From positions 142,786,001-142,850,000 of the forward strand of contig CM126204.1 in NCBI GenBank assembly GCA_052327205.1: DNA of 64,000 bases, given 5' to 3'. This stretch comes from Somniosus microcephalus. Taxonomy: Eukaryota. The notes beneath the pieces are model-generated. The model was given only the letters and a program-made list of their open reading frames with translations. It was not told the origin of the DNA and ran no database searches. Shown here piece by piece: positions 7,201-53,714 of the stretch (its first letter is position 1; each line of letters opens with the position of its first letter). Both the position numbers and the translations under genes were made by a program.

Positions 7201-8971
7201 CCAGTATGTTCTCTCTCAATAGACGGTCAAGCTCAGCCTCTACCTTTGGCTTCATGGCATAAGGCACAGGTCGTTGTTTAAAAAACCTTGGCGGTGCCTC
7301 CTTGTCTACATAAATCTTAGCTGGGGGGCCATTAAATGTGCCAAGTTCCTCCTTGAACACATTCTCATGTTCTCTCAACACTTCTTGCAAAGTCAACTGT
7401 TTGCCCGCATCTATTTGATGTACTGCTCCCCAGTCTAATTTAAGTTCTTTTATCCAGCCCCGACCTAACAGGTTTGGTCCGTTACCCGATACTATATCAG
7501 CTGGTAGCTGTTCCACTGTGTCCCTGTGTTGCACAGTTACATTAGCTGTACCTAATGTCGCTACTCGTTCACCTGTATATGTTTTAAGATGCAGGGAGCA
7601 AGGCTTTAACTCTGGAACTTTTGCACGGTTCCACAATTTTGAGCACTCTGCCTTGTTCATTATGGTCACACCGCACCCTGTATCCACTTCAAAGTTCACC
7701 TTAGAGTCATTTACTGTCAGTTGCAATGTGATAGGAGCCACTTTTGGAATGTTCTTTAACATGCTATACATTATGAACATATCCTCTTCTTCCTCAGCTT
7801 CTCCGCTGATGTGGTGTGCTCCATGTTTTTTCACTTCTCTCCCTTGGTTTTGCTGTCCTCCCCCTTTTGGTTTGGATTCCTCCACAGGTGATTTTGCCCT
7901 GCAAGCTCGTTTTATGTGTCCTTGTTTCCCACACTTGTAGCACTTTTCCTCCAGAAACCGGCATTCACTCGCCAGGTGATCGCCCTTGCATCTATAACAT
8001 GCCTTCACATGCTCACGTTGTGGTTTCTGACGCATGTTCAACTTGTGCACAACAACCTGACCTGCAACTTGCGTAGCATTAGCCCTGTCTGAACCCTGTA
8101 TTTCTTTTACATCTCGGTTCGCTGTCTCTATGGCTTGAGCAAGTTCCAATGCTTTTTCATAAGTAAGCCCAGTCTCGGATAATAATCTGTGCTGCATTCG
8201 GTCATCCATTATTCCGCAAACTAGCTTATCTCTCAGCATTTCCTTCAGGTTGTTCCCATAATTGCAATCTTGTGCTAATTTACACAACACCACTACATAG
8301 TCCATTACACTCTCTTCCTCTTTCCTGTTCCTTGAATTAAACTTGAACCGCTGTACAATCTCACTAGGCTTAGGGTTGAAATGTTCTTTTAGCAAGGCCA
8401 CTAATTCAACAAATGATTTGTCTCCAGGCTTTTCAGGACTGAGCAGATTCTTCATCAAACTGTAGGTTTGGCTTCCCACTGAACTAAGCAGAATGGCTTT
8501 CCTTTTTCCGGCATCATTTATTTCATTTGCTTCGAAAAAAATAACCCAAAACTTCACAGTATTCCTCCCAGGTTTGTGTTTGACTATCAAAAGCGGAAAC
8601 CATTCCTACCATGGCAGCCATGCTCTCTTCCAGCTGGTAGCTAACCGTAGCTTGTAATTTTGTTGTTTAAACGTCCTGGCAGACTTTTCTTCTTTGTTCA
8701 GGGTCCTTTAGTTACCTCGTCGCCAAATGTGATAAATCCATGTCGTGAGACAAGGACTCGAAGAGGCGAGGTATTAGGATTAATAAGAGTACTTTATTAA
8801 ACGACTGCGAAACAACCAGGCAGGCTTACATCCAGGCATTGCACCCTTGCTGACCTTGACAGGAAGCAAACCTCTGACCTTAACAGGAAGCAAACCTCTG
8901 ACCTTAGCAGCAGCATTGGCTACAGCACCACCTGGTGGCTAACCTTAATCATAACATCCCAGATTACTATA
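4242..8971 (-). mobile_element. Gypsy LTR retrotransposon (Mag/K02A2.6-like), full length, frameshifted
   Basis: 244-bp LTRs 4242-4485 and 8728-8971 (5 differences counted by eye); TSD TTTAC; PBS TGGCGACGAGG; PPT AAGGGAGGAGGGA. Confidence 0.95.
4587..8621 (-). pseudogene. gag-pol of the Gypsy element, broken into at least 3 ORFs
   Basis: Two CCHC knuckles, protease VDTG, RT YLDD, RNaseH CDASPYG, integrase HHCC and DAHSKW/SDN/GLAER across ORFs 6179-8590, 5245-6246 and 4587-5315. Confidence 0.92.
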
Positions 8972-9289
8972 TTTACATTGCCGTCGGGGCGGGTGCGGGG
9001 GGCCGTGGATTGTGTTGAAGCGACGTGTCTTGCAGTGGCTTTTTAACAAAGCCACTGCAATTGAATCAGACTTCCGGGTTCCCGACCAATTAACTGGAGT
9101 GGGTCTGATGAAGTCACGGATGACTCGACTTCAGCTCAGCTATTTAAAGGAGCAATGCACAGATGACAGTTGGAAGGTTGGTGGAGGTGCAAGAGACGTT
9201 GTAGGGGGAGAGAGTGCATTGTGTAAAGAGTAATTTGCTTGTTGGTATATAAATTTATACAGATTGATAATCAAAAATGAAGGCTCAGT

Positions 9290-32635: not shown

Positions 32636-34258
32636 ATTCCCAATGAGTTATGCAAGATTCAAACATTAAATAGTCTTAAGATGCATTTCACTATATAGCA
32701 CTTGATTAGTTTTATTAACACCTGACTGGATGTTATCAATGGTTAACATTCACTTCTTGTCCTGTGTTTACTAATAGACTGTGTCCACATGTATCTGTGC
32801 TAATCTGCACCGTGTAATATTTATATGCACATTAAAATCCATCAACGGTCCTTTATCTCATTTACATAATTGGTCCAACTCATTTTCAGTGCTGTCAACC
32901 TTTCTTCCATTAGTTATCTAATCAAATAGAATTAAAAGCAGATATTATAGTACAATTTTGACTCTTGAGGTCGATAGATTTTTGCTAGCCAAGGGTATTA
33001 AGGGATATGGAGCCAAAGCGGGTAAATGGAGTTAGGATACAGATCAGCCATGATTTCATTTATTGGCGGAACAGGTTTGAGGGGCTGAATGGCCTACTCC
33101 TGTTCCTATGTTCCTTCCTAATAGATCCTTTTGCTCTTCTACCCCACTTAGATTCTTATTTTCCAAGTAATGTGTGACCTCCTTATTTTTCTTACCAAAA
33201 TGTAATATCTCACATTTATCTGTGTTGAAACATTAATTTTCCAATTATATGACCATTCTGCAAGTTTATTAATGTCTTCTTGTAATTTGTGGCAGTCCTC
33301 CTCAGGATTGACTATTCCCCCCCCCCCCCCAAATTGGGTGTCATCCACAAATTTAGAAATTGTGTTTGATTCCGAAGTCTAAATCGTTACTATAAGTTGT
33401 GAACAACATTGGTCCCCGCACTGATCCTTGTGGACCCCACTTTCCACCTTCTGCCACTCTGTAGTGTATGTAACCTGTACCACCTTAAGAGGATACCTTA
33501 AGGTGATGGACTACTTTCTGATGGCTCCTGTACATTGTAGTACCGGTGGTGACCACACCGGTATATAAACCCTGTGGAGCAAAGTGTATTTCAGTTCAGC
33601 CCTGACCCTCAGTTACTAAAGACCTGTTTAAGTATTCTGTAGTCTGTGTCCAGTTATTCAGCATAACTACATTTGAAAGCACAGACTCAACAGTGGCGAC
33701 GAGTCTGATCGTACCTAGCGGCAGTTTTGCATCCAAGGAAGCTTCGTCCTCAGAACGGGCGTCGAAAAGGGGCATCCGCCCTCAACATCCTGCTGAGCAC
33801 TGCATCGCACGGGAGGCCATCGGGAACCCGGGTTGGTTTGCTGGCCACGAAGTCCACCATCAGCAACAGGCAGTGATCATCCCTTCTACGACAGCGGCGG
33901 GTAAGCCCGATCGAGCGGCACGGAGGGGAAGTCGGCCGAGTTGTCAGTGGGAGAAGGGGAGGGAAAACGAAAAGGGCGGAGAACACGACCGCAGCCGGTG
34001 TCAGGGGCCGGACTGCAATCGGGGCAGAGACGCGCAGCAGCCAGAAAAGCGTTGATGTCCACAAGGACCGCGGGAGCGGCGGGGAACAAGAGCAGCAGCG
34101 TCGGGGGAAATAAAGGACCGCCGGGAGGAGAGAACGGCAACAGCGCGGTAATCGCCATTTTTAGTCGGCGGAGGAAGAAGACAAGCGCGGGAAAAGCTGC
34201 CAAGCGCGGGAAGCCGCCATTTTGAAAAATAAAATAAAATAAAGGAAACTCAACAAGG

Positions 34259-35437
34259 ATGCCAAAAACGGGTAACATCACTGCTTTTGATAGCGATGTG
34301 GAAGATTGGGCCACTTATGTGGAACGCGTCGAAGTTTACTGTACAACGAATGAGGTACCGGAGGATAAGAAAGCACTAACCCTATTAAACTCGATGGGTG
34401 CGAAGACGTACGGGTTATTAAGGAACCTTGTAACACCAGATAAACCGGTAGGAAAGAGTTTCGCGGATATTGTTACTATCCTGCAAGAGCATTTAAACCC
34501 CACACCGCTGCTGATAGCGGAACGATTTAAATTCGACAAAAGAATTCAACTTAAAGAGGAAAGCAACGCTGAATTCTTAATCGAACTGCGCAAGTTATCA
34601 AAGTACTGTCAGTTCGGTACAGGACTAGCAGACGCACTGAGAGATAAGTTTGTGTGTGGGCTCCTAAGGGAAGGAACCCAGAAGCGACTGCTAGAGGAAA
34701 AGGATCTTACGCTGGACAAAGCTTTCAGCATTGCAGCATCGCACGAGGCAGCAGCACGAGGCGCTGCAGAGATACAGCAAAGGCCATTGGAATTCAGCAC
34801 CAATGAAATGGCATTGGGCGCAGTAAAGTGCTATCGTTGCGGAAGGACAACGCATGACCAGAACCAGTGCTGGTTCAAAGATAAAGAATGCAGGCAATGT
34901 GGCAAACTTGGTCACATAGCGAGAGTATGCCAGTCAGGAAAGAAGACCAGCAGCAAAAAGTCGCAGCAGGAGAAGTACAAAAAAAAAGTACACAAGGTGA
35001 CAGAGAACAGTTCGGATGAACAGAAGATGGATTCAGACTCCAGCAGTAAGGAACTGGGTTGTCTAAAAATACATAATGTGGGTAACACAGCAGACCACCA
35101 AACTATCTGGGTCATGCTTCGGATAGCAGGAGCCCAAGTGAAGATGGAATTGGACACTGGATCAGCATTGACGGTCATGAATAAGCAAGATTACAAAAGG
35201 TTATTCTCGCACATTCCCCTGAGGGATACGGAGATTGTATTGAAAACATACACGGGGCAAATAGTATACCCCATCGGAAAGATAAAAGTAAATGTGGTCT
35301 ACAATGGTAAAGAAAGTCAGGAAATGGACTTGTATGTGTTACCTGATGGAGGTCCGCCACTACTGGGACGGGAATGGATCCGGAGAATAAATGTGGACTG
35401 GCATTCCATTACAAGCACTGACTGTAGATTCCTGTAA
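34259..35437 (+). CDS. Gag-protease part of gag-pol
   Basis: Two zinc knuckles (CYRC..HDQNQC, CRQC..HIARVC), protease LDTGS, PLLGREW. Confidence 0.9.
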   Translation: MPKTGNITAFDSDVEDWATYVERVEVYCTTNEVPEDKKALTLLNSMGAKTYGLLRNLVTPDKPVGKSFADIVTILQEHLNPTPLLIAERFKFDKRIQLKEESNAEFLIELRKLSKYCQFGTGLADALRDKFVCGLLREGTQKRLLEEKDLTLDKAFSIAASHEAAARGAAEIQQRPLEFSTNEMALGAVKCYRCGRTTHDQNQCWFKDKECRQCGKLGHIARVCQSGKKTSSKKSQQEKYKKKVHKVTENSSDEQKMDSDSSSKELGCLKIHNVGNTADHQTIWVMLRIAGAQVKMELDTGSALTVMNKQDYKRLFSHIPLRDTEIVLKTYTGQIVYPIGKIKVNVVYNGKESQEMDLYVLPDGGPPLLGREWIRRINVDWHSITSTDCRFL

Positions 35438-38215
35438 AGAGGACGACGTCAAACCTAAACGACTGTCCAAAATATTGGACGATGCTAAGGAGGTGTTCCA
35501 ACAGGGACTGGGAACACTGAAAGGAATTACGGCAAACATCAAGGTTGAAGAACATGCAAACCCAAAATTTTTCAAAGCCAGACCGGTACCTTATGCGATA
35601 CGACCTGCTGTGGAAGCAGAGCTGGAAGGGCTAGAACGTTCAGGAGTACTGTCAAAGGTGGACTGGAGCGAATGGGCCACACCCATTGTTCCTGTCATGA
35701 AGCATTCGTTGAGCAACAAGCCGGGGGAACCTGGGAAGGTTCGCATCTGTGGCGATTTCAAGATCACTGTTAATCCGGTTCTTCACACGGTGCAATATCC
35801 GCTTCCGCGAATTGAAGATATCTTCGCTTCGCTGTCTGGCGGGAAACACTTCACCAAGATAGACCTGGTGCAGGCGTACCTACAGATGGAAGTTGATGAA
35901 GCGTCACGCCAGTATCTCATGATCAACACACATAAGGGCTTATATCGGTATAATAGACTGGTTTTTGGAGTGGCATCGGCTCCAGTGATTTGGCAAAGGG
36001 CCATGGAGCAGGTATTGCAGGGAATTCCAGGCACACAATGCTACCTGGACGACATTCTGATTACAGGAGATGATGATAAGGATCACCTCGCGAATTTGGA
36101 GCAGGTGCTCACCAGATTGAAAGAATATGGGCTCAGAGTTAATCGCCAGAAATGTAAGTTCTTTCAAAAGCGAATCTCGTACTGCGGCCACGTCATTGAC
36201 CAGGAGGGGCTCCATAAGTCACCTGACAAGATCGAAGCTGTTGTGAAAGCTTCCGCTCCGGAAAATGTATCCCAGTTGAGGTCGTTCCTTGGGTTGGTTA
36301 ACTATTACCACAAGTTTCTTCCAAATTTATCCACGGTGTTACACCCGCTGAACGCTCTTTTGCAAATGGGAATACCATGGAAGTGGAGCGATGATTGTAA
36401 GCAGGCTTTTCACAAAAGCAAGGCACTGATCACCTCTAAGGAAGTGTTGGCTCACTTTAACCCAACGCTGCCTATTCGCTTAGCTTGTGATGCTTCTCCA
36501 TATGGTATTAGGGCAGTGCTCTCACATAAGTTTCCAAATGGCTTGGAAAGGCCAGTCGCGTTCGCATCCAGATCATTGACCTCCACAGAGCGCAACTATG
36601 CTCAGATAGATAGGGAGGCTCTCAGCCTCGTGTGGGGAGTTAAGAAATTTAACCATTACCTGCAAGGCCAAAAGGTTACGCTGCTGACAGATCACCAGCC
36701 GTTGGTTTCCATTTTTAACCCTAAGAAGGGTGTTCCGGTTATGACGGCGCTGAGGCTTCAGAGATGGTCCCTTTTCCTAGGGGCACATCAATATGATATC
36801 GAATTCAAAGGTACAAAGCAACATGGTAATGCTGATGGGCTGTCGCGCCTGCCACTACCTACAGCGGAAGAGGCACCGGCAGTTGACCCTGTCGAGATAT
36901 TTCACTCGACCATCATCGAATGCTTACCAGTCACCAATGCGGGTATTGAGAGAGAGACCCGAAACGACCCGACACTGTCTCGGGTCTACGATTTGACAGT
37001 GAAGGGATGGCCAGCACATGGCGAACCACTGTTACCTGCATTCTCAGCCAGACGAGAACAGCTGTCCGTCTGTCAAGGAACATTGATGTATGGAACAAGG
37101 GTGATTATTCCTCCTAAATTAAGGGAGAGAGTTCTGAAGGAACTGCATGAAGGTCATCTGGGGGGAGTCAAGATGAAAAGCCTTGCTAGGGCTTATGTGT
37201 GGTGGCCAGGTATCGACAAACAAATAGAGGATCTGACTAAAAGCTGCTCAGGGTGCCAAAAAGTTCAAAACGCACCTCCAATTGCACCGCTGCATCCGTG
37301 GGAATGGCCTTCAACCCCATGGCAACGTGTGCATATCGACTTTGCAGGTCCATTCATGGATTCCATGTTTTTGATAGCGGTAGATGCACATTCTAAATGG
37401 CCAGAAGTGATTAAGATGTCGACCACTACCTCTGAAAAGACGATCGCAGTTCTAAGAACCATATTTGCAAGGAATGGGTTGCCGGAACAAATATGTTCAG
37501 ACAACGGACCACAGTTCGTGTCAGAAGAATTCCAGAAATTCATGAAAAAGAATGGGGTGAAACACTATACATCTGCCCCATATCATCCGGCTACCAATGG
37601 GTTGGCCGAGAGATTTGTACAAACGTTCAAAAAGGCGATAAAGGCCATGAGCGAAGACCATGTTCCACTACAACACAAGGTGGACAATTTCCTGATGGCA
37701 TATCGAAACGTCACGCATGCAGTGACAAATCAAAGCCCTGCCATAATGTTCTATAACAGGAGGTTGCGGTCCCGGTTGGATTTGTTAAAACCCAATGTGC
37801 GTAGGGAAGTCGAAAACAAGCAATTCCAGCACGTAAATAACAAGGCCACTCGGAGTTTCGAAATAGGACAACCAGTGTTGGCCACGGACTATAGGAATGA
37901 TAAATGGCAATCCGGAACAATTCGTGCCCGACAAGGACCCTTGATGTACACGGTAGACGTTGGTGAGAACGTAATACAACGTCATGCTGACCAACTTGTG
38001 GAATCGAGAACAAGGGTCGACCCCATGTCTACGGCAGAGACACCAGTTGAAGAAGTTATTGAGCCTGTAGCATCTACCTCAGACTCGAACGTACATGATG
38101 ATGTTCAATCCATAGGAGATCAAATGGATGAGTCACCCCAGCAACGAGAACCAGAGACCCCGAAAGGCGTTATCCGGCCTGGATCAGGAGGCCTCCTCAG
38201 AGACTGAATCTTTGA
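35391..38215 (+). CDS. Pol (RT, RNaseH, integrase), offset from gag-protease by one base near 35410; second frameshift near 38160
   Basis: YLDD, CDASPYG, HEGH..CSGC, DAHSKW, SDNGPQF, GLAERFV; family-type C-terminus RRYPAWIRRPPQRLNL* lies in another frame. Confidence 0.9.
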
Positions 38216-38651
38216 ACAGTTTTGTGTGAAAGTTGTATATATGTTATCCATGTTATGTTTAAATTGGGGTGTACACTGTTAAGCTAAAAGGGGAGGAATT
38301 GTAGTGTATGTAACCTGTACCACCTTAAGAGGATACCTTAAGGTGATGGACTACTTTCTGATGGCTCCTGTACATTGTAGTACCGGTGGTGACCACACCG
38401 GTATATAAACCCTGTGGAGCAAAGTGTATTTCAGTTCAGCCCTGACCCTCAGTTACTAAAGACCTGTTTAAGTATTCTGTAGTCTGTGTCCAGTTATTCA
38501 GCATAACTACATTTGAAAGCACAGACTCAACACTACCCTTCACCCCTACTCTCTGTTTCTATCTTGAAGCCAGCTAGCTATCCATTCTGCTACTTGTCTC
38601 CTGACTTTGCATTCTCTGACCTTATTCATTAGTCTATTATAGGGTACCTTA

Positions 38652-40931: not shown

Positions 40932-41524
40932 CAGGTAGATTATCCTTTATCCGAAAACCTCGGGACCAGCCGAGTTTCGGTTTTCGGAGAATTTCGGATT
41001 TCGGAAGGTGGGTCGGCGGGGGTCCGCGGGGGGGTCGGCGGGGATCGGGGCCGGCGGGGGTCCGGCGGTTGTCGGGGCCGGCAGGGTCCGCGGGGGGGTC
41101 GGCGGTTGTCGGGGCCGGCGGGGTTCGCGGGGTCCGCGGGGGGGTCGGGGCCGGCGGGGTCGGCGGGGGGGGTCAGCAGTTGTCGGGGCTGGCGGGGGGG
41201 GTCGGCGGCGGGGGTCGGGGCCGGCGGGGTCCGCGGGGGGGTCGGGGTCGGGGCCGGCGGGGGGTCGTGCGCACGACTTACGGTGACGCTCAGCGTAAGT
41301 CGGTGGGGGTCGGGGTCAGCGGGGGTCGGGGCCGGCGGGGGGGTCGGCGGGGGTCCGTGCGCACGACTTACCCTTTATCCAAACTTCCGAAACCGGAACC
41401 CTCTAAAAACCGAAGGTTTTTTCATTCAGTGTAAGTCGTACGCACAACTTACGCTGAACGAAAAAACCTTCGGTTTTTAGAGGGTTTCGGTTTTCGGAAG
41501 TCCGGATAAAGGGTAGTCTACCTG
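40932..41524. mobile_element. Tc1/mariner-type MITE with G-rich minisatellite and internal palindrome
   Basis: TA|caggtagattatcctttatccg...cggataaagggtagtctacctg|TA, inserted in a SINE tail. Confidence 0.85.
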
Positions 41525-43049
41525 TATCTAAATGCAAGTCTTTCTTTTAATACGCTGTTAAAAACTCAGTTACACCTCATTCAATAAAGCTTAACAATTT
41601 CAGGGGGTTTTACAGCGTGATTAGAGCATAAAAAAATGGAAGTTCACGTCAATTCAAGTGATTTGTAAGATTTCCATCTGCAAGGACTTCAACAGCGCAC
41701 CCTGTGGAGGAGCGGGGAATCACTGACAGCAACTTCCGTATTTCCGCGTTTAAATGCGCCTGTGCGGACGTCAGAAGTTGCTGTCGGTTTTACAGAGCAA
41801 TGACGGCAAACGCTGACAGTTTCACCGTCATTACAACCGCAAATTCTGGGCCAATGTGCATTTTCTGGTAGGCATTTAGACCTCCTGCCTCCAAGATGTT
41901 GTTTCACGGTTTGTGCTAGTTCCTGTTGCAAATGCCAGAAACACACACTTTCAAAATTTCGCTCATGCAAGTTGAGCATCCAACATTGCCAGTCCATGGA
42001 AAGAAATTTAACAAGGCAGTCAGCAAGTTAAATGGTTTGCTTTTGGCTTGTATTGTTTGTTTTTTAATGTGTTGTTTATTTTGGCTACTTCAGTGGATGA
42101 AACTTTTTATTTTAGGCACAGCCCCCTACATATTAGGACTACTGTCCCTATAGGAATCTATATATCATTTGGAGGAAAACGAGGAGGAGAAACTGCACCA
42201 ACAGGACTACACACACTTGCTGCTACCCCACAAACGGCATATACTTTTGAGCACCCCTCCCAGTCTGCTCCACTCCCGGCACCCCTTACCCAATGTACTC
42301 CATTCACTGCACCCTGCTACATCTCCCTCTGCTGTTCACCAGTAACTATATAATAGAAGCCCTGCTTCCAGCACACACCTCTTATGAGTGTCACACTTCC
42401 TGTCACACTTTCCCCTCTCTCACTTTTTTTTTTTAACAACACCCCGATTGTTATAAAACAGCATGTCCTCTGACTTACTGTGACGACACCGTGGAAGTTC
42501 TGCTGGTAATATATTCAAAGTCTTGCCAATAAAGAACACTTACCGTACACAACACACTTAATTCCTGTCACACTAAAGCCATCACACTCTGCTGATTGAC
42601 TCAAAGTAAAACAGCAGCAAATTGAGAGGTAGAAAATATAAGATTGAGGAAAGTGGCTGGAAATATCTGTGGCCTTAATACTTTGTCATGCATTCCGCGG
42701 GAAAAAAAGACATTATTACAAAACAGCATGTCTTCTGACTCAATCTGAGTGATGCCATGGAAGATCTGCTAATGTGTGTGTATATAAATGTTACATTTTG
42801 CTGCACATGCAGTGTTTCTAGTCAACAGAAATATCATAATTGGCTCAAATATTCCCAGAGCTAATGATAAACACTTCATTGCCTCCGAGCATATCACTCC
42901 TTGCGTCTCCTCCCCATCCCAGCAACCCCTTTGTAACAGCATGACCTCTGACCTGTATGAGCAATGTCATGGAGATTCGCTAGTATATTAAATAACTAGC
43001 TGGGGGTGCCCGGTGGTGCCGAGGCTTTTTAGAGGGCATGTTGTTGTTG

Positions 43050-43760
43050 GAAGAGAGAGAGAGAGCGACTGGGGGGAAGAGGGAGAGCGAGCGACTGGGG
43101 GGAAGAGAGAGAGCGAGCGATTGGGGGGAAGAGAGAGAGCGACTGGGGGGAAGAGGGGAGGAAGGGACAGAGGGCAGGAAGGGGGAGAAGGGGGGGCGGA
43201 AGGGGACAAGGGGGGCAGAAGGGGGAGAAAAGGGGGGTGGAAGGGGGGGAGAGAGAGAGGGGGGGAGAGAGAGAGGGGGAGAGGCCGGGTTGCCGGGATA
43301 ACCCTCCTCCCCCTCCCGCGGCCCGCCCCTCCCGAGCCCCACCCCCGCCCCTCGCGAGCCCCGCCCCCCCAGCCCTGCCCCCCCTCCAGCTCCCCGAGCC
43401 CCGCCCCCCCTCCAGCTCCCCGAGCCCTGCCCCCCCTCCAGCTCCCCGAGCCCCGTCCCCCCCCTCCCGAGGCCGGGCCTGAGGCGGCTTGAGACGGCTG
43501 ATTGCGGCTGGCCAGGCCCGGTTGCCGGGGTAACCCTCCTCCCCTCTCCGCTCCGCTGTCCAAGCCCCGGCCGCCCCGCCCCGCACTCCCGAGAGCCCCG
43601 CTCTCCGAGCCCCGGCCGCCCCGCCCCGCACTCCCGAGAGCCCCGCTCTCCGAGCCCCGGCCGCCCCGCCCCACACTCCCGAGAGCCCCGCTCTCCGAGC
43701 CCCGCCCCCCCCGCCCAAGCCAGCTTCAAGACCACCGAGCGGGGAAGAGAGAGAGACACA
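43050..43760. repeat. Purine-rich and GC-rich minisatellites inside the Helitron
   Basis: Units gagcgactgggggaaga, cccctccagctccccgagc and a 42-bp unit x3. Confidence 0.85.
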
Positions 43761-44253
43761 AGAAATAGGAGCAGGAGCAGGCCAACCGGCCCCTCGAGCC
43801 TCCTCCACCATTCAATAAGATCATGGCTGATCCGATCCTAACCCCAAATCTTCTATCACTCTCCATCCCACCCGAACCCATGTGATCTCCCGGGAGAGGC
43901 GAAAAACCAGATAAAAAACCCAATGGCCAATTTGGGAGAAAAAATCTGGGAAATTCCTCTCCGACCCATCTAGGCGATCGAAACTCTTCCAGGAGATCAC
44001 TCTGTCCCTATATTTTCTACAGTACTTACCTTCTGTAAAGGCGATCTCCACCCCAGCCAGGAACAGGAATAAAACCATCTCCTGAAATCTAACACAGAAT
44101 AAGAACACAAGAAGTAGGAGCCGAACCAGGCTACACGGCCCCTGGGCCCGCTCCACTACCCACAGGGCCATGACCATTCCTAACCTAGACTCATGTCCAA
44201 TTTCCTGCCCGCTCCCTGTAACCCTTAATTCCCTTTACTTCTAGGAAACTATC

Positions 44254-47200
44254 TGTTAAGTCTGTGGGTTGTATTATAAATAATCACAGACTCCACTGTT
44301 AACAGAATAAAACACGTCTTTACTATTCAGCGGCTCGGGCGATTCTGCCCTAGTTAACGTATCACAACCCTTATATACTGGTGTGGTCACTATCGGTATT
44401 ACAGTATACATGAGCCAATAGATAGTGCCACCCTAAAGTAGTGCTCTTAAAGGCGAACGGTTACATTCTATAGTTCCCTTAAAGGTAAACGGTTACATAC
44501 ACAACACTCCTCCCTTCCTAGCTTATTACTTACAGAATCCCGTTAAACATACAATCTTCAACTTTATATAAACAGTTTGCAGATATACTCTCGATGGAGT
44601 CAACGTCATATAACAATTTACAAATATACTCTCAATGGAGTCAACGTCATATAACAGTTTACAAACATACTCTCAGTGGAATCAGTTTACAGGTTCAGTC
44701 TCTGTGGGAACAGTTCATAAATTCAGTCTCTGGTATTAATTCGTTCCAGACAGCATCCTCCATAGCTTTTTTTTTTTTTTTTTAAACAGCTTGTACTTTC
44801 GTCCTGTTGAACCAGCAGTGCGGACTTATACAACCCACTGGCTGTCTTGATAATGTCCCTGGATTTTTTTTACAAATTTAGCACCTTTCGTAGTGTTCGG
44901 ACTGAGGTAGTAGAAGTAATAATATTTTAAACAGTTATTATTTTCTGCTTCTTCTTTTTCTTTTCTGCCTTTTTGAAACTCTCCGAGCTCTTTTCCCGGC
45001 TGCCATCTGTAGCGCCACCAACTCTCTATGTTCCTTAGACCTTAAGTGCTTCCTCAGGATTTCAGCACTTTGGGAGTTCCCATCACAATTTGGGCAGACC
45101 ACATCCTCATAACATTCGGTGTCACTCAACAGGTCAAAACCCTTCTTCAAGCAATCATATTCATCCTGCTCTTCCTCGGATGTCTGCCCTTCCTTCCCTC
45201 CTGGCCTCATTTGTGCGTTCAATCCTTTCCCTTCCTTCAGGGATTTCGTTATCAGGCTATTTAATCCTTCTACTGAAGTAGCTGTTTCCCCATTCTCCTG
45301 TTCCCCTGGACGTAATTCAGCGTACTCCTCCATTTCATCCATCATTTTCTCCAATGCTTTCATCTTCTCTTCCTCTTGTACTTTGGCTTCCAGTGCTTGG
45401 AGAAGTTGCGCCTCGATGCTCTCTAGCTCATGTTCAGGGCCCATTCCCAGTTGAAACTGTTCTTCAAGTCGGTCAACCTCGGTAATTGCCGCCTCATATT
45501 TGTCTTGGGCTTCCTTCCATATTTTTATGAGTTCTGCCATGTCTTTCACCTCTACATCCTCATCTATGTATGGAACTTCTACCGATGAGTCTGTCTTGGC
45601 CCTGAGCTCCTCAAGAATTTCCTGCAGCCTTTGGACTTCTTGCTCATGTTCAACCTTTAGTTGCTCATATACTTCCAACGAAACTAGCTTTTCGGAGGTT
45701 GCTGAGTTAACCCCCTCCAGAATTGTAGTCTGGGCCTGTTCATACTGTTTTTTCAACTTCTCGCACTCTGCTTGTAAGGAGTCGTAGAGAAGAACTGGAA
45801 TAAAATCCTGGCTTCCTGAAGATTCCTCTTCATTTGTTTCTTTCGCAATTTCCTGTTGGAGTTCAGCCAAGGCTGCTATGCTATCTGCCTCTCGAAGTCT
45901 CACTGCCATCAACTCTTCTTTATTCTTGCAGTCCATCTCAGCCATTTCCCGTTTACTTTCATTTAACTGAGTGAGTAGTCCCTTATTTTGGGCTGAGAGA
46001 TATTGCACCTTCTCATGTAGACCCTTGCACTCCTTCTCTGCTTGACATAGCTGATTACCGCTGATTTGGTTCTGCGTTTCAAGTTCCAACATCCTTTGCT
46101 TAGCTTCTTTCAGTTTCGCCCCTATAAGCTCCTCTTGCAACATGGCCACATTATTCTCATCAGGTAAAGAAGCGTTTCTCTTTTCCATGTCCAAGATTTG
46201 TTTCTGCATCTCCTTAAGAGCACCCTGTGATTCAACTTCTCTTAACTTTGCCTGCACTAGCTCCGTCTCTAATTGCAGAACAAAATCCTCAGTGCAGCGT
46301 GATTTGCCCTTCTGCTGTATCTCTAGATCATGCAAATATTCTAACCCCTGAACATCATCAGGGAGATGTGATCGGTAATTGGTCACGATGGCTCTATGGT
46401 CGCTCTCTGCTTGAGCCAGTAGGTTCTGTTGTCTTTCCAGACTCTCCCATTCGGTGTCATAGAACTTTTTCATTGTTTTCATCTCTTGTACGAGGCGGTA
46501 ACTTAATTGTTCTAATTGTTGTTGTACTTTGAAATAGCGTTGAGTTCGAGCCCGGTGTTCCTCCGTAATGCATATGTCTGTAGCTTGAACAGACTCAGAA
46601 TTCTCTGTCTTTATGCACGCCATCGATTTCCCAACCTTAGTCCGTGAGTTAATGTTAACCTTGTTTTTCATACATAAGCTGGACTTATCGTCTTCCAGCT
46701 CAGAGTCTGAGCTGCTTGTCTGCACCGAGTCCTCACTCGTCATTGCTTGTCGGTAGTGCCATTCCATGTCTATTTTCTTGATCCACTCCCGTCCTAGAAG
46801 TGGTGGTCCTCCCTCAGGTAGTACGTACAAATTCATTCTTGGGTGTACTTTACCCCTATCTCTCACCTTGACTCTTATCTTCCCCATGGGGTATACGCGA
46901 TGCCCCGTGTATGTCTGTAATACGAACTTGGTATTTCTTAAGGGTATGTGAGAGAATAGTCGGTGGTAGTCCTTTTGGTTGATGACTGATACAGCTGATC
47001 CCGTGTCCAGCTCCATTCGTACTTGGACTCCAGCTATTTTTAGTGTGACCCAGATCGTCTGTAGATCAGTTACTTTACCCACATTGTGGATTCTCAGACT
47101 ATCCAACTCCTGGCTGTTTGGGTCTGAGTCTGAATTTTGTTCGTCTGAACTCTTTTCAGCCACCTGATGCACCTTGTTGTACTTTTCTTGTGGTGGTGGC

Positions 47201-48999
47201 TTCCTTTGTTTGTTGGTCTTCTTTCTGGACCTGCATACCTTCGCGATGTGACCCAGTTTGCCACATTTCCTGCACTCTTGATTCTTAAACCAGCACTGAT
47301 TCTGGTCGTGCGTTGTCTTTCCACAACGGTAGAATTTGGAAATGCTTGCAGTCATTTGGTCCACCCCGAGTGCCGCCGCCTTTAGCTGCATTTCCGCCGT
47401 CCCTTTCGCTGCGGCTTCGTGCGATGAAGCTATGAGGACAGCCCTGTCCAGTGTGAGGTCGTTTTCTTCCAGAAGTCGCTTCTGCGTTCCTTCTTTGGCC
47501 AAGCCGCATACGAACTTGTCCCGCAGCGCCTCTGTCAAATTCCCTCCAAACTGGCAGTATTTCGCTAGCTTACGCAGTTCGACTAAGTATTCCGCATTGC
47601 TTTCATCTTGCCTCTGGGTTCTGGCGTAAAATTTAAATCGTTCAGCCAGTATCAACGGTGTGGGGTTCAAGTGATCCTTCAGCACTGCTACGCTCTCTTC
47701 GAAGGTCTGGTCCACTGGTTTAACTGGTGCTATTAGATGTTTCAAGAGCCCGTATGTTTTTGCTCCCATCGAATTTAACAAAGTTATTGCCTTGGCGTAT
47801 ATGGCTACGCAATATATTCCTATGCGTTCCCCATACGTGGCCCTGTCTTCTATTTCAGCATTAAAATCATTAATATTTCCTCGCTTAGGCATCTTCTTCT
47901 CTTTCCGAGAACAGCACAAGTATTTCTTTACTTATTATTAATTTTCTTCTCTTCTTGAGAACACCACCAGTATTGCTTTACTTATTTCTTGTTTCTGAAA
48001 ATTCTAATTAATTTTCTTCTCTCTTCTTGAGAACACCACAAGTATTGCTTTACTTATTTCTTGTTTCTGAAAATTCTAATTAATTTTCTTCTCTCTTCTT
48101 GAGAACACCACAAGTATTGCTGTACTTATACTTATTTTTCCTCTCTTCTTGAGAACACACCAGCCTTTCTGAAAAATCTTATTACTTTCCTGAAATTCTT
48201 AATAATTTCCAAGATGGCGGTTTCCCGCTTCTTCCTTCTTCTTCAGCGGTTTCCCCGCGAAAAATGGCGGCTTTCCCGCGCTTCTCGCTCTCCCCGCCCA
48301 CTTCGATGGCGGTTTTCCCGCGCTTCTCGGCGCTCTCCGCCCACTTCAATGGCGGTTATCACCCGTTCCCCGACGCTGACTTTCAGGCCGAGTGCGGGCC
48401 TTATCAGCGGATGCGATCGATGGCCCGGCTGCCCTCGCACTTGAAAGCGGCCCCCGGCCTCTGGCTCACCCGCTCGCACGGCTCTTGCTCGCTCCCTCCC
48501 GGGCTCTGGCTTACCCGCTCGCGCGTTTCACCGCGGCTCTTATCAGGGATTGCGATCGCCCTGTCTTTGCAGCCAACGCTGCGGCTTACCCACGAGGTTA
48601 TGGAGGCTTCAGGGTCCTAATGCCTGTCGCTTCCAGCCTGTCGGTTCCAGACTGGTGAGGATTGAAACCTCTCTTCAACGTCCTGTCTTCGGACGAAGCC
48701 GCCGTGGAACAACTGCCGCAGGGTTCGAATCCTGACTCGTCGCCAATGTTAAGTCTGTGGGTTGTATTATAAATAATCACAGACTCCACTGTTAACAGAA
48801 TAAAACACGTCTTTACTATTCAGCGGCTCGGGCGATTCTGCCCTAGTTAACGTATCACAACCCTTATATACTGGTGTGGTCACTATCGGTATTACAGTAT
48901 ACATGAGCCAATAGATAGTGCCACCCTAAAGTAGTGCTCTTAAAGGCGAACGGTTACATTCTATAGTTCCCTTAAAGGTAAACGGTTACATACACAACA
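44254..48999 (-). mobile_element. Non-autonomous Gypsy LTR retrotransposon carrying host-gene-like cargo in place of pol
   Basis: 253-bp LTRs 44254-44506 and 48747-48999, no differences seen; TSD CTATC; PBS TGGCGACGAG; PPT AGGAAGGGAGGAG; no RT, RNaseH or integrase motifs. Confidence 0.95.
44938..47892 (-). CDS. 984-aa Gag-protease fused to coiled-coil and zinc-finger cargo
   Basis: First ~385 aa align with ORF 34259-35437 (LDTGS intact); remainder resembles recalled STK10, ANKRD24, EVI5 and DNAJC21 segments; no stop codons. Confidence 0.88.
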   Translation of the reverse strand: MPKRGNINDFNAEIEDRATYGERIGIYCVAIYAKAITLLNSMGAKTYGLLKHLIAPVKPVDQTFEESVAVLKDHLNPTPLILAERFKFYARTQRQDESNAEYLVELRKLAKYCQFGGNLTEALRDKFVCGLAKEGTQKRLLEENDLTLDRAVLIASSHEAAAKGTAEMQLKAAALGVDQMTASISKFYRCGKTTHDQNQCWFKNQECRKCGKLGHIAKVCRSRKKTNKQRKPPPQEKYNKVHQVAEKSSDEQNSDSDPNSQELDSLRIHNVGKVTDLQTIWVTLKIAGVQVRMELDTGSAVSVINQKDYHRLFSHIPLRNTKFVLQTYTGHRVYPMGKIRVKVRDRGKVHPRMNLYVLPEGGPPLLGREWIKKIDMEWHYRQAMTSEDSVQTSSSDSELEDDKSSLCMKNKVNINSRTKVGKSMACIKTENSESVQATDICITEEHRARTQRYFKVQQQLEQLSYRLVQEMKTMKKFYDTEWESLERQQNLLAQAESDHRAIVTNYRSHLPDDVQGLEYLHDLEIQQKGKSRCTEDFVLQLETELVQAKLREVESQGALKEMQKQILDMEKRNASLPDENNVAMLQEELIGAKLKEAKQRMLELETQNQISGNQLCQAEKECKGLHEKVQYLSAQNKGLLTQLNESKREMAEMDCKNKEELMAVRLREADSIAALAELQQEIAKETNEEESSGSQDFIPVLLYDSLQAECEKLKKQYEQAQTTILEGVNSATSEKLVSLEVYEQLKVEHEQEVQRLQEILEELRAKTDSSVEVPYIDEDVEVKDMAELIKIWKEAQDKYEAAITEVDRLEEQFQLGMGPEHELESIEAQLLQALEAKVQEEEKMKALEKMMDEMEEYAELRPGEQENGETATSVEGLNSLITKSLKEGKGLNAQMRPGGKEGQTSEEEQDEYDCLKKGFDLLSDTECYEDVVCPNCDGNSQSAEILRKHLRSKEHRELVALQMAAGKRARRVSKRQKRKRRSRK

Positions 49000-51760
49000 C
49001 TATCTATTTCTGTTTTAAATTTATTTAATGATGTAGCTTCCACAGCTTTCTGGGGCAGCAAATTCCACAAACCTACCACCCTCTGAGTGAAGAAGTTTCT
49101 CCTCATCTCAGTTTTGTAAGAGCAGCCCCTTATTTTAAGATTATGCCCCCTAGTTCTAGTTTCACCCATCATTGGGAATATCCTCACCGCATCCACCCGA
49201 TCAAGCCCCTTCACAATCTTATATGTTTCAATAAGATCGCCTCTCATTCTTCTGAACTCCAATGAGTAGAGTCCCAATCTACTCAACCTCTCCTCATATG
49301 ACCACCCCCTCATCCCCGGGAATAACCGAGTGAACCTTCTTTGTACTGACTCGAGAGCAAGTATGTCTTTTCTTAAGTATGGACACCAAAACTGTATGTA
49401 GTATTCCAGGTGCGGTCTCACCAATACCTTGTATAACTGCAGCAATACCTCCCTGTTTTTATATTCTATCCCCCTCGCAATAAAAGCCAACATTCCATTG
49501 GCCTTCTTGATCACTTGCTGCACCTGCATACTAACTTTTTGAGTTTCGTGCACCAGGACCCCCAGATCCCTTTGTACAACAGTACTTTCCAGTTTCTTGC
49601 CATTAAGATAATAACTTGCTCTATGATTTTTCCTGCCAAAGTGCCTAACCTCACACTTTCCAGTATTGTATTCCATCTGCCAAATCTCTGCCCACTTACT
49701 TAGCCTGTCTATGTCACTTTGCAGGTTTTTTATGTCCTCCTCACTCACTACTTTCCCTCCCATCTTTGTATCATCTGCAAACTTTGATATGTTACACTCG
49801 GTCCCCTCCTCCAAATCGTTAATATAGATTGTAAAGAGTTGGGGACCCAGCTCTGATCCCTGCGGAACACCACTAGTTACTGATTGCCAGTCTGAGAAGG
49901 AACCATTTATCCCAACTCTCTGCTTTCTGTTAGAGAGCCAATTCTCCACCCACGCCAGAATATTACCCCCAATCCCGTGATTTTTTATCTTGAGCAATAA
50001 TCTTTTGTGTGGCACCTTGTCAAATGCCTTTTGGAAGTCTAAATACACTACGTCCACTGGTTCTCCTTTATCCACCCTGTATGTTACTTCCTCAAAGAAC
50101 TGAAGCAAATTTGTCAAACATGACTTCCCCTTCATAAAACCATGCTGACTTTGTCCTATTAAATTATGTTTATCCAAATGTCCCGTTACTGTCTCCTTAG
50201 TAATGGACTCTAACATTTTACCAACCACAGATGTTAGGCTAACAGGTCTATAGTTTCCAGCCTTCTGCCTACTACCCTTTTTAAATAAGGGTGTTACATT
50301 AGCAGTTTTCCAATCTGCTGGGACCTTTGCTGAGTCCAGGGAGTTTTGGAAAATTATTACCAATGCATCCACAATCCCTACCGCCACTTCCCTCAAGACC
50401 CTAGGATATAAGCCATCAGGTCCAAGGGATTTATCCGGCTTAAGTCCCATTATTTTACCAAGTACCACTTCCTTAGTGATTTTAATCGTATTTAGCTCCT
50501 CTCCCCCTAGAGCCCCCTGTTTGTCCAGTGTTGGGATATTCTTAGTGTCCTCTACTGTAAAGACTGATACAAAATATTTGTTCAGCGTTTTTGCCATCTC
50601 CATGTTTCCCACCATTAATTTCCCAGTCTCATCCTCTAAGGGACCAACATTTACTTTAGCCACCCTTTTTCTTTTTATATAACTATAGAAACTTTTGCTA
50701 TCCGTTTTTATATTTTTTGCTAATTTACTTTCATAATCTATCTTCCCTTTCTTAATCAATCTTTCAGTTATTTTTTGCTGTCTTTTAAAGACTTCCCAAT
50801 CTTCTATCCTCCCACTAGATTTGGCTACCTTATATGCCCTTGTTTTTAGTCGGATACTATCCTTAATTACTTTACTTAGCCACGGATGCCTATCTTTTCT
50901 TTTACACCCTTTTTTCCTCGGTGGAATATATATTTTTTGGAAGTTGTAAAATAACTCCTTAAATGTACACCACTGATCATGTACCGTCTTACCCTTTAAT
51001 CTATTTTCCCAGTCCACTCTAATCAATTCCGCTCTCATACCTTCATAGTCTCCTTTGTTCAAGCTCAGCACGCTTGTTTGAGATCCAACCTTCTCACCCT
51101 CTACTTGAATATGGAATTCAACCATGTTATGGTCACTCATTCCAAGGGGATCCTTTACTAGGACATTTTTAATTAATCCTGTCTCATTACACAGGACCAA
51201 ATCTAAGATTGCTTGCCCCCTGGTCGGTTCAGTTACATACTGCTCAAGAAACCCATCCCTAATACACTCAATGAACTCATCCTCAAGGCTGCTCTGCCCA
51301 ATTTGATTTGTCCAGTTAATATGATAGTTAAAATCCCCCATAATTATAGCTGTTCCCTTATTACAAGCCTCAACTATTTCCTGATTAATACACCGTCCAA
51401 CAGAGTTGCAACTGTTCGGAGGCCTATAGACTACGCCCACTAGTGTTTTTTCCCCTTATTATTCCTTATCTCTACCCAAACTGTTTCACTATCCTGCTCC
51501 TTTGACCCAATATCATTTCTCTGTATTATTATAGTGATTCCTTCCTTTATTAACATAGCCACCCCACCTCCCCTCCCTTCCTGATTGTTAAATAACCTGG
51601 TATGTTTAATTCCCAGTCATGGTCACCCTGCAGCCATGTTTCTGTAATGGCCACAAGATCATACCCATATGTAGTTATTTGTGCTGTTAACTGATTCATT
51701 TTGTTACGAATGCTACGTGCATTCAGATAAAGAACTTTCAAATATGTTTTGTGACACTTA
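49000..51760 (-). pseudogene. CR1 ORF2 (APE endonuclease + RT), frameshifted near 51560-51590 and truncated by the LTR insertion
   Basis: LYLNARSIRNK, ITETWL, GDFN, SDHN, QHGF, PQGS, FADD. Confidence 0.9.
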
Positions 51761-51920
51761 GTTCCTGTTTTTTCCCCTTTTACTACTTTACCTTTTACTC
51801 CATAACTTCTGTCCCTTCCTGACATGTTCTGTTTTTTAATTTCCCCACTGCTACCTAAGTCTATGACCTTCTCCGTTGTCATTTCTGTTATTTGCTCTCT
51901 AGAAACCTCCCCCCCACTAA

Positions 51921-52877
51921 TTAGTTTAAAGCCCTCTCTACAGCCCTAGTTATATGATTTGCCAGGACTCTAGTCCCAGCACTGGCCAAGTGGAGTCCGT
52001 CCCAACGGAACAGCTCCCTCCTGTCCCAGTACTGGTGCCAGTGTCCCAAGAAGCAAAACCCATTTCTCCCACACCAGTCTTTGAGCCACGCATTTAACTC
52101 TTTTATTTTATTTATCCTAGCCAAATTCGCTCGTGGCTCAGGTAATAACCCAGAGATTATTACCCTTGAGGTTCTGTTTTTTAATTTGACCCCTAGCTGC
52201 TCATACTCCTTTAACAGAACCTTCTTCCTTGTCCTATCTACGTCGTTTGTACCAACATGGACCATGACAACTGGATCCTCCCCCTCCCACTCCAAGTTTC
52301 TTTCCAGCCCAGAAGAGATGTCCTTAACCCTGGCACCGGGCAGGCAACACAGCCTTCGGGACTCCCGCTCTTGACTGCAGAGAACCCTATCTATCCCCCG
52401 AATGATACTATCCCCTACCACTACAACATTTCTTTTTACTCCCTCCAATTGAATGGCCCCCCGTACCATGGTGCTGTGGCCAGGTTGCTCATCCTCCCTG
52501 CAGTCCCCACTCCTGCCCTCACAGGGAGTAAGAACCTCAATCCTGCTTGACAAGAGCAAGGGCTGCAGCTCCTTCAACGCTACATTCTGGATCCCTGTAC
52601 CTTCCTCACTCGTAGTCACACCGTCCTGTCCCTGACCACGGACTACATCTGCAGTAATTAATTTCATAGGTGTGACCACCTCCTGAAACATAGAGTCCAG
52701 GAACTTCTCCCCCTCCCTGATGTGTCGCAGTGTCTGAAGCTCGGTCTCAAGCTCTTTGACATGGAGCTTGAGTTCCTCTAGCAGCAAACACTTATCACAA
52801 ATGTAATCACCGTGAGCCTCAATGGGGTCCACCAGCTCCCACATTTCGCAACAGTGACACATCACCTGTTCACCCAT
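51921..52877 (-). CDS. CR1 ORF1p (zinc finger, coiled coil, SGNH esterase-like)
   Basis: CHCCEMW..CDKC, VVVGDSIIR, CLPGA, HVGTND, WDGLHL. Confidence 0.9.
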   Translation of the reverse strand: MGEQVMCHCCEMWELVDPIEAHGDYICDKCLLLEELKLHVKELETELQTLRHIREGEKFLDSMFQEVVTPMKLITADVVRGQGQDGVTTSEEGTGIQNVALKELQPLLLSSRIEVLTPCEGRSGDCREDEQPGHSTMVRGAIQLEGVKRNVVVVGDSIIRGIDRVLCSQERESRRLCCLPGARVKDISSGLERNLEWEGEDPVVMVHVGTNDVDRTRKKVLLKEYEQLGVKLKNRTSRVIISGLLPEPRANLARINKIKELNAWLKDWCGRNGFCFLGHWHQYWDRRELFRWDGLHLASAGTRVLANHITRAVERALN

Positions 52878-53714
52878 ATCTGTGTAATTAATTAAATTTC
52901 TTATTATTAGTTATGAAGACCCTCTGCCCCGATATAGATGATAATATTACACCACTATTTAATAGGACTTACCAACTTAAAGGTATAGAAGAGAAGGAAG
53001 AGAGCCTACCAACCAGCTGATCACCAACCTCCCTCGTGGAAGCTGTCTGGGGGACCTGTCTGGTTGCATTGTCTCACTGCTCCACGTCCGCAGTGTTGGA
53101 TTAGCCTGAGAAAGGGAAGCAAAACAGAGCAACAAGCACCCCCTCACCTCCCACTTGCCCGAAAGCCCGCCCCTTTTTATACCTGGATTCTACTTCCGGT
53201 TTCAACTCCCCAACAACTTAATTTACTCTAAAAAATTAAACTTACTTCAAATAATTCACTTTTTTACTCACTAAAATTCAGTAAATGCACTTAAAAGACT
53301 TTTTCTGCCACTTACCAAAGTCTGCTTAAACTTAATGCGACGCCGTATCTGAGCTGCTGGCTTCCCGCGCTCTGCGTCGCCTGCTGCGCGCGCACCCTGT
53401 GCATGTCCCGTGACCCTCGCGGCCAATGCCGTTGCCCCAGGGTAACGTGACGGGGGGGACTGGGGGGGGAGGAGCTTACAGAAGCCGTGGGACAATTACC
53501 TAGCTCGGGCGTGGCTGGGCAGGAGAGGCCCAGGCTTTGAGGCCTAGGTTTTGAGGCCTTACAAAAACAGGGAAAGGTAGGAAAAAGAATCATCAGGTTA
53601 GAGAAAATATTTACAAATGAATGAATTTTTTTTTTAAACAATTTAATAAAAGCAATTTTTTTTTGCTGGAAATGTAGATTTGAAAAGAAACACGCAGAAA
53701 GCGGGAAAAAGAAT

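Follow-up and report, generated by a model that had tools for sequence, protein, structure and literature searches.

Structure of the element

On the minus strand of the window (the whole stretch of DNA analysed, 64 kb), an element at 44254-48999 was found inserted in the end of ORF2 of a CR1-type LINE. Its paired TG...CA LTRs, target-site duplication, primer-binding site (PBS) and polypurine tract (PPT) (Table 1), a gag and protease related to those of an element with reverse transcriptase (RT), RNase H and integrase, and the lack of an RT and integrase of its own by Pfam identify it by sequence as a young non-autonomous Ty3/Gypsy LTR retrotransposon, which we take to resemble the Mag clade of that group. 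No tRNA genes were found in the 64-kb window. The element's untranslated regions hold short tandem repeats, with 72-nt units at 47937-48129 (5′) and 41-nt units at 44558-44730 (3′). The interrupted LINE, with ORF1 and ORF2, occupies 48972-52910 (minus strand), and the end of its ORF2 resumes below 44249. Other Gypsy elements lie nearby. One at 33460-38532 (plus strand) has identical 233-nt LTRs, RT, RNase H and integrase, with a frameshift between protease and RT; it shares 70% of nucleotides with the window element over gag-protease and is the closest RT-bearing row to the cargo family in the tree described below. A more distant one at 4242-8972 (minus strand) has LTRs differing at 5 of 245 nt and pol in several frames. 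GC-rich, strand-skewed tandem repeat tracts were seen at 41010-41365 and 43030-43737.

Table 1. Features of the window element and its flanks (window coordinates)
Feature	Position	Strand	Remarks
5-bp target-site duplication	44249..44253; second copy 49000-49004	.	flanks element
3′ LTR	44254..44506	-	polypurine tract before LTR at about 44507-44520
Single ORF, Gag-knuckles-protease fused to host cargo, 984 aa from first ATG	44938..47892	-	
Decayed STK10 exon 8 3′ end and exon 9 5′ end	44785..44955	-	now stop codon and 3′ UTR
jaz-type C2H2 zinc finger and basic tail	44943..45136	-	Pfam
Optineurin coiled-coil remnant	45142..45327	-	colinear, without back-splice
Ankycorbin-family exon A, resumed past EVI5 insert	45317..45844	-	81% nt
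EVI5 circle, one turn	45845..46330	-	678 nt less 192-nt in-frame deletion
Ankycorbin-family (RAI14/ANKRD24-like): end of exon B, exon C, start of upstream exon A	46331..46419	-	
STK10 exon 11 3′ part and exon 12 5′ part (start of first PKK coiled coil)	46424..46564	-	Pfam, host DNA match
Two decayed STK10 exon 9 pieces (linker), first cargo	46560..46738	-	77% and 84% nt to host
Aspartic protease	46765..47049	-	Pfam Asp_protease_2, E=2.5e-5
Gag, two zinc knuckles at 47334-47230	47100..47892	-	Pfam zf-CCHC
Primer-binding site	48722..48745	-	complementary to a tRNA 3′ end
5′ LTR, 253 nt, TG...CA	48747..48999	-	identical to 3′ LTR, 0 mismatches

The ORF lies in a 997-aa stop-free frame (47931-44938, minus strand), with about 600 aa of cargo behind the protease and neither RT nor integrase. 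Host cargo has replaced pol, made up of STK10, an ankycorbin-family gene, EVI5, optineurin and a zinc finger. A skate protein named "ankycorbin" (P0129) is a relative of the ankycorbin-family segments, and ANKRD24 is close too. The EVI5 host gene was located through its TBC region; a first splice-site pattern for an EVI5 exon gave no match in the genome. Neither the host of the zinc finger nor that of a sister-element cargo segment that we presume to be a cingulin-like coil was found by pattern searches, so both donor names are tentative, DNAJC21 being a possible one for the zinc finger. A ZUO1-like family search gave one C17 gene, whose role as zinc-finger donor was rejected, as it had no match to the zinc finger. 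The whole cargo gave 0 matches in a sequence search of the PDB. The first knuckle carries a private zinc-ligand substitution (window about 47334-47290), not seen in 8 of 9 other close copies.

Identity of the 46-residue STK10 piece

The first-pass annotation had read the 46-aa peptide encoded at 46563-46426 (minus strand; residues 457-502 of the stop-free frame) as an STK10/LOK-like PKK coiled coil. Stops are present on the plus strand at 46426-46563. A profile of this 46-mer and two longer sister pieces placed shark STK10 proteins at the top, with 63-67% identity to the 46-mer, and SLK-named rows at 52-54%. Because that query included sister pieces, the 46-mer was also scored alone: it reached 38-41 bits on three shark STK10 proteins and 17-19 bits on four SLK-type proteins (two named SLK, two unnamed), with at most 4.5 bits on 120 EVI5 coiled coils, at most 3.7 bits on 26 optineurin coiled coils, and a best score of -4.9 among 60 shuffles. 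The host STK10 gene was located at G000:C8:167.17-167.28 Mb, and most of its exons match sawshark protein P0261 at 90-100%. Its exons 11 and 12 agree with the piece at 114/138 nt (83%) and 32/46 aa, the 1-kb host intron between them is gone from the piece, and sister elements agree with the host at 136/138 nt. Since the first PKK exons of the shark SLK paralogue are absent from the 50 kb fetched, the choice of STK10 over SLK is based on the protein scores and the STK10 DNA match. The Pfam PKK match that the annotation had suggested as a check was obtained (E=3.7e-5, 24.3 bits), slightly below the 25-bit cut-off, as a chance match of a low-complexity coiled coil would also allow; the DNA identity over the removed intron, the sister match and the scores below 5 bits on other coiled coils refute that explanation, and the generic matches without STK10/SLK preference that would have told against the annotation did not occur. 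These matches identify the 46-aa piece as a descendant of STK10, not a generic coiled coil.

Compared with the STK10/LOK PKK domain (Pfam PF12474), the piece is a direct descendant of STK10 exons 11-12, but it covers only the first third of one PKK repeat, is 70% identical, and sits in a transposon polyprotein. The N-terminal STE20 kinase domain and two PKK repeats of an STK10 gene or paralogue are not both present in the window ORF; as the annotation had stated, Pfam finds no kinase there, and its absence follows from the STK10 circle (exons 8-12) beginning after exon 7, where the kinase ends.

The piece starts at 46563 at an old internal deletion that joins exon 9 to exon 11 and is common to sister elements. 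It had been called the first cargo module; this has to be corrected, as the decayed STK10 exon-9 linker precedes it at 46738-46560, making it the second STK10 segment. At its other end STK10 descent continues a few bases beyond 46426, into an overlap with the next donor. That module adjoins directly, as claimed: it is the ankycorbin-family segment, and the microhomology proposed for 46425/46426 was found. Host STK10 exon 12 has about 7 nt in common with the end of the ankycorbin-family exon, which less-diverged sisters show plainly and the window copy only indistinctly. Of the donor mRNAs that the annotation had placed at this junction, host STK10 origin holds, whereas the template was most likely not a linear mRNA but a back-spliced circle of exons 8-12.

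Back-splice junctions and one-turn inserts

The host exons of STK10, EVI5 and the ankycorbin-family gene were placed on G000 and have AG/GT borders. In sister elements the STK10 cargo runs in the order exon 9 (3′ part), exons 11-12, exon 8, exon 9 (5′ part), and the end of exon 12, a host donor site, is joined exactly to the start of exon 8, a host acceptor. This junction occurs in sisters only; the window copy lost it when the next donor came in. The permuted order is nevertheless kept in the window, where the remnant at 44955-44785 (local score 77; best of 300 shuffles, 36) is, judging by this match, the rest of the STK10 circle. The other two back-splice junctions are present in the window, that of EVI5 at 46315|46314, last circle exon to first, and that of the ankycorbin-family gene, joining exon C to the upstream exon A, at 46348|46347 (92% nt across the junction). 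The elements align unbroken over the back-splice of all three in-silico circles, whose lengths are 1245, 1743 and 678 nt (678 being EVI5), all multiples of 3 and stop-free. Exact patterns of the three junctions have 916, 3655 and 1781 genomic copies, and reversed controls have 0. Over the fetched host regions, the STK10, EVI5 and ankycorbin matches all fall within circle exons and none outside them. As in LTR-mediated retrocopies, intronless host sequence stands in place of an internal ORF part. The exact back-splice junctions suggest that these three donors were captured as circular RNAs.

The lengths of the inserts were then considered. The STK10 cargo of sisters enters its circle at position 281 and leaves at 294, that is, one turn plus a 14-nt overlap, and is flanked by short matches at the start and end of pol. 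The EVI5 insert, 17 nt into the ankycorbin exon, likewise makes one turn, from entry at 659 to exit at 662. One-turn length was thus seen in 2 of 2 inserts with both ends surviving. For the ankycorbin circle, no element with exon B was found (the single genomic match, 1/1, is the host gene). Where donors change, sisters show about 4-14 nt of microhomology.

Linear RNAs in which exons are repeated, arising by trans-splicing or by tandem exon duplication in the host and captured by the same template switching, would leave an identical junction sequence, and Dong et al. 2016 (PMC4897178) caution that such non-colinear junctions may also arise in other ways. However, the fetched host regions have a single copy of each exon and the genome a single ankycorbin exon B, three independent genes would be needed, and nothing would drive such templates toward one-turn length, so we consider them improbable. 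Extra RT jumps on ordinary linear mRNAs that landed on splice sites by chance are more improbable still. Splice sites do share a short consensus, the back-splice joints share 1-3 nt in linear mRNA, and the element family recombines often; yet all 3 backward junctions are exact on both sides, 0 of 18 other junctions join two splice sites, and one-turn inserts would need a third exactly placed jump every time. Circular templates are accordingly preferred to both, as the likely source of these three cargoes.

Back-splices were found for 3 of 5 mapped donors (STK10, ankycorbin-family, EVI5). The titin-type Ig cargo of sisters, also examined for a back-splice, is colinear over 5 exons with mid-exon ends, and their optineurin cargo covers exons 3-8 almost end to end with no back-splice junction, which leaves it ambiguous; being colinear, both speak against generality of circle capture, and 2 further donors were not located. 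In X13, a run guessed to be RNA from another organism, only host-gene pieces were found, among them an EVI5 contig of 680 letters that equals the five circle exons plus 2; it may weakly hint at an expressed circle, and alternative splicing could give the same.

Copies, sister elements and order of gain

A 451-nt query gave 40 of 40 scored genomic matches at about 100%, and an exact 30-nt pattern over the STK10/ankycorbin junction of the window subfamily occurs 665 times in the genome; first-look candidate counts (1473, 16569, 13829 and 21276) are not copy numbers. The top copies (n=10) all have open frames of 891-998 aa with a common tail. When the genome was searched with the PKK family, all 150 scored matches exceeded the cut-off; 12 loci were read, comprising 11 sister elements with longer STK10 cargo and 1 processed STK10 3′ copy. 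The latter (L011, G000:C3:354658271-354658942), next to a LINE, has the STK10 3′ exons at 98-100% identity to the host and is a linear retrocopy of the usual kind. The 30 zinc-finger loci comprise 28 sister elements, a single host exon and one locus not displayed. The sisters come from protein and family searches, a kind of search biased towards open frames.

To the STK10 scaffold, sisters add titin-type Ig repeats, optineurin exons 3-8, a zinc finger or the cingulin-like coil. The Ig exons (L012-L022; host at G000:C5:24.71-24.73 Mb) look captured as spliced linear RNA, which would require a muscle-type transcript in the germ line. A sister subfamily (L081-L084, L105-L124) holds optineurin exons 3-8 nearly complete, including a stretch that we take to be the LC3-binding motif; the window lineage is without this stretch. 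Copies in head-to-tail tandem, 4483 bp apart, were seen at G000:C1:217281626-217290621 and L037. One EVI5-less copy (L054, G000:C13:about 62867500-62870700) lies in an intron of its own ankycorbin-family donor, within the circle-forming region, which may be chance, given the copy number.

A tree of knuckle-protease DNA (47 rows, midpoint root) placed 4 RT-bearing rows outside the 43 STK10-bearing rows (support 97/99). Within these the cargo states are nested, STK10 > ankycorbin > EVI5, with 26 ankycorbin rows at 100/100, 21 EVI5 rows at 94/75 (a weak SH-aLRT of 75) and the window subfamily of 10 rows at 100/100. EVI5-less intermediates survive (L045, L048), and the EVI5-less joint also occurs in contigs of runs X1, X2 and X4, which cover all 30 bins and carry three organism labels from two studies, one of them possibly the source sample. 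Synonymous divergence (dS) to the host falls from 0.25-0.70 for STK10 to 0.07-0.10 for ankycorbin and 0.02-0.11 for EVI5. The nested tree and the falling dS together give the order of gain as STK10, ankycorbin, EVI5. The optineurin/zinc-finger block of the window lineage has one deletion and one duplication in common with other sisters and hence was probably gained by recombination between elements.

Reading frame and constraint on the cargo

Counting from translations, in a sample with a bias towards open frames, we find the frame preserved at 17 of 18 distinct recombination junctions; the one exception creates the present stop codon. In the optineurin part, 20-nt and 1-nt deletions compensate each other, and a frameshift of about 12 codons survives. 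The ratio dN/dS, obtained by simple counting that ignores transition bias and so lowers it, was 0.08-0.11 for gag-protease, indicating strong constraint. For the window copy it was 0.32 over the PKK piece (46 codons, Fisher p=0.036), 0.95-0.97 over the linker and ankycorbin exon A, and 0.69 over the cargo as a whole (p=0.064); for the cargo of sister L085 it was 0.32 over 356 codons (p=5e-6). With constraint mixed and the frame kept, we prefer a model in which selection acts on an open, translated frame and only weakly on the coiled-coil extension that it encodes. Most likely, then, the cargo is translated into a coiled-coil extension under loose constraint, its exact residues counting for less than its open frame. 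An open frame would avoid decay of RNA with an early stop, and the cargo possibly replaces Pol as oligomerising partner behind the protease.

A stronger reading would make the cargo a selected tool: as a coiled coil it might dimerise the protease or give order to the particle, or it might act as a decoy for host partners (optineurin and EVI5 pathways). That 5 of 7 cargo donors are long coiled coils, that the L085 cargo is constrained over so many codons and that chimeric subfamilies number thousands would fit it. However, the family swaps and trims its modules and reads parts of them out of frame, the cargo of the window copy is in large part near neutral, and purine-rich coiled-coil exons would also give more microhomology and stop-poor frames. 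We therefore think a selected tool unlikely and keep to the loosely constrained extension.

Proposed route of circle capture

RT switching onto co-packaged circRNAs at microhomologies, followed by selection for an open frame, is very probably the best explanation of these data. Both of its ingredients have precedent: RT can switch to co-packaged RNA at microsimilarity and then back, according to Tan et al. 2016 (PMC5131818), and retroviral Gag alone can package circRNAs, according to a preprint (bioRxiv 10.64898/2026.01.21.700838). The RT of a shark Ty3/Gypsy element would have switched at a short shared sequence onto a co-packaged STK10 exon 8-12 circle, gone round it once and returned to its own template at the end of pol, thereby removing RT, RNase H and integrase from the element. 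RNase H would destroy the circle template behind the polymerase, so that copying would stop where it had begun, giving one-turn inserts. Gag and protease would still be made, and RT-bearing relatives would move the element in trans, supplying RT and integrase, as the identical LTRs and the 665 exact subfamily-junction copies suggest. The next capture, of an ankycorbin-family circle, would have cut PKK down to 46 aa; an EVI5 circle would then have entered, nested inside the ankycorbin insert, and the optineurin/zinc-finger block would have been added from sister elements.

The gag-onc transducing retroviruses have Gag fused to host gene pieces, have lost pol and are moved by helpers, and we know of no back-splice junctions in them or in maize Bs1. 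Bs1 is alike in having Gag fused to several host gene pieces, pol lost and helper-driven movement, as cited in PMC5131818, whereas the shark element is an animal Ty3/Gypsy element without env. In LTR-mediated retroposition as the same paper presents it, host RNA likewise replaces an internal ORF part between LTRs, with microsimilarity at the switch points, several parental genes, in-frame products and further non-autonomous cycles. There, however, linear mRNAs serve as templates, and the main text has 0 occurrences of "circular" and "circRNA", whereas the shark family has three donors with back-splice junctions, nested, in thousands of copies. The mouse circRFWD2 pseudogenes (Dong et al. 2016, PMC4897178) resemble the shark case in a non-colinear exon-exon junction in genomic DNA, no poly(A) and nearby LTR sequence (MMERVK10C). 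They are, however, 33 high-confidence copies of one circle, called pseudogenes, with the mechanism stated as unknown, whereas the sharks have complete LTR elements, three circles in one lineage, frame kept with Gag-protease, and one-turn inserts. Both halves are thus known, LTR-mediated retroposition from PMC5131818 and circRNA-derived pseudogenes from PMC4897178. In the literature searched, largely other than subscription journals, neither the present shark family nor a series of circle captures within an LTR element was found described; as far as that search reached, serial, nested, in-frame circle capture at such scale is the new part.

The route by which circRNAs are reverse-transcribed into genomes was left open by PMC4897178, and the shark family would supply a mechanism with checkable marks, namely LTR bounds, microhomology at entry and exit, and one-turn length, in three independent captures within one lineage with surviving intermediates and thousands of copies. 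It is also a vertebrate case of large-scale exon shuffling by a transposon, in which circRNAs would be written back and shuffled into a chimeric gene. Tentatively, and with more doubt than assurance, these points may be joined in one reading, in which circRNAs are favoured for capture by LTR elements, the chimeric protein is selected stepwise, and germ-line circRNAs have left a dated fossil record in the copies. Here circRNAs would be packaged and endless, with RNase H forcing the polymerase off after exactly one turn; whole exon cassettes would drop in without loss of flanking sequence, and the selected Gag-protease-coiled-coil protein would let an element that lacks Pol outgrow its helpers. 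The family also makes it testable whether cargo captured by LTR elements is enriched in circles. Finally, reads of STK10, EVI5 and optineurin, and back-splice reads, in such sharks can stem from transposon DNA.
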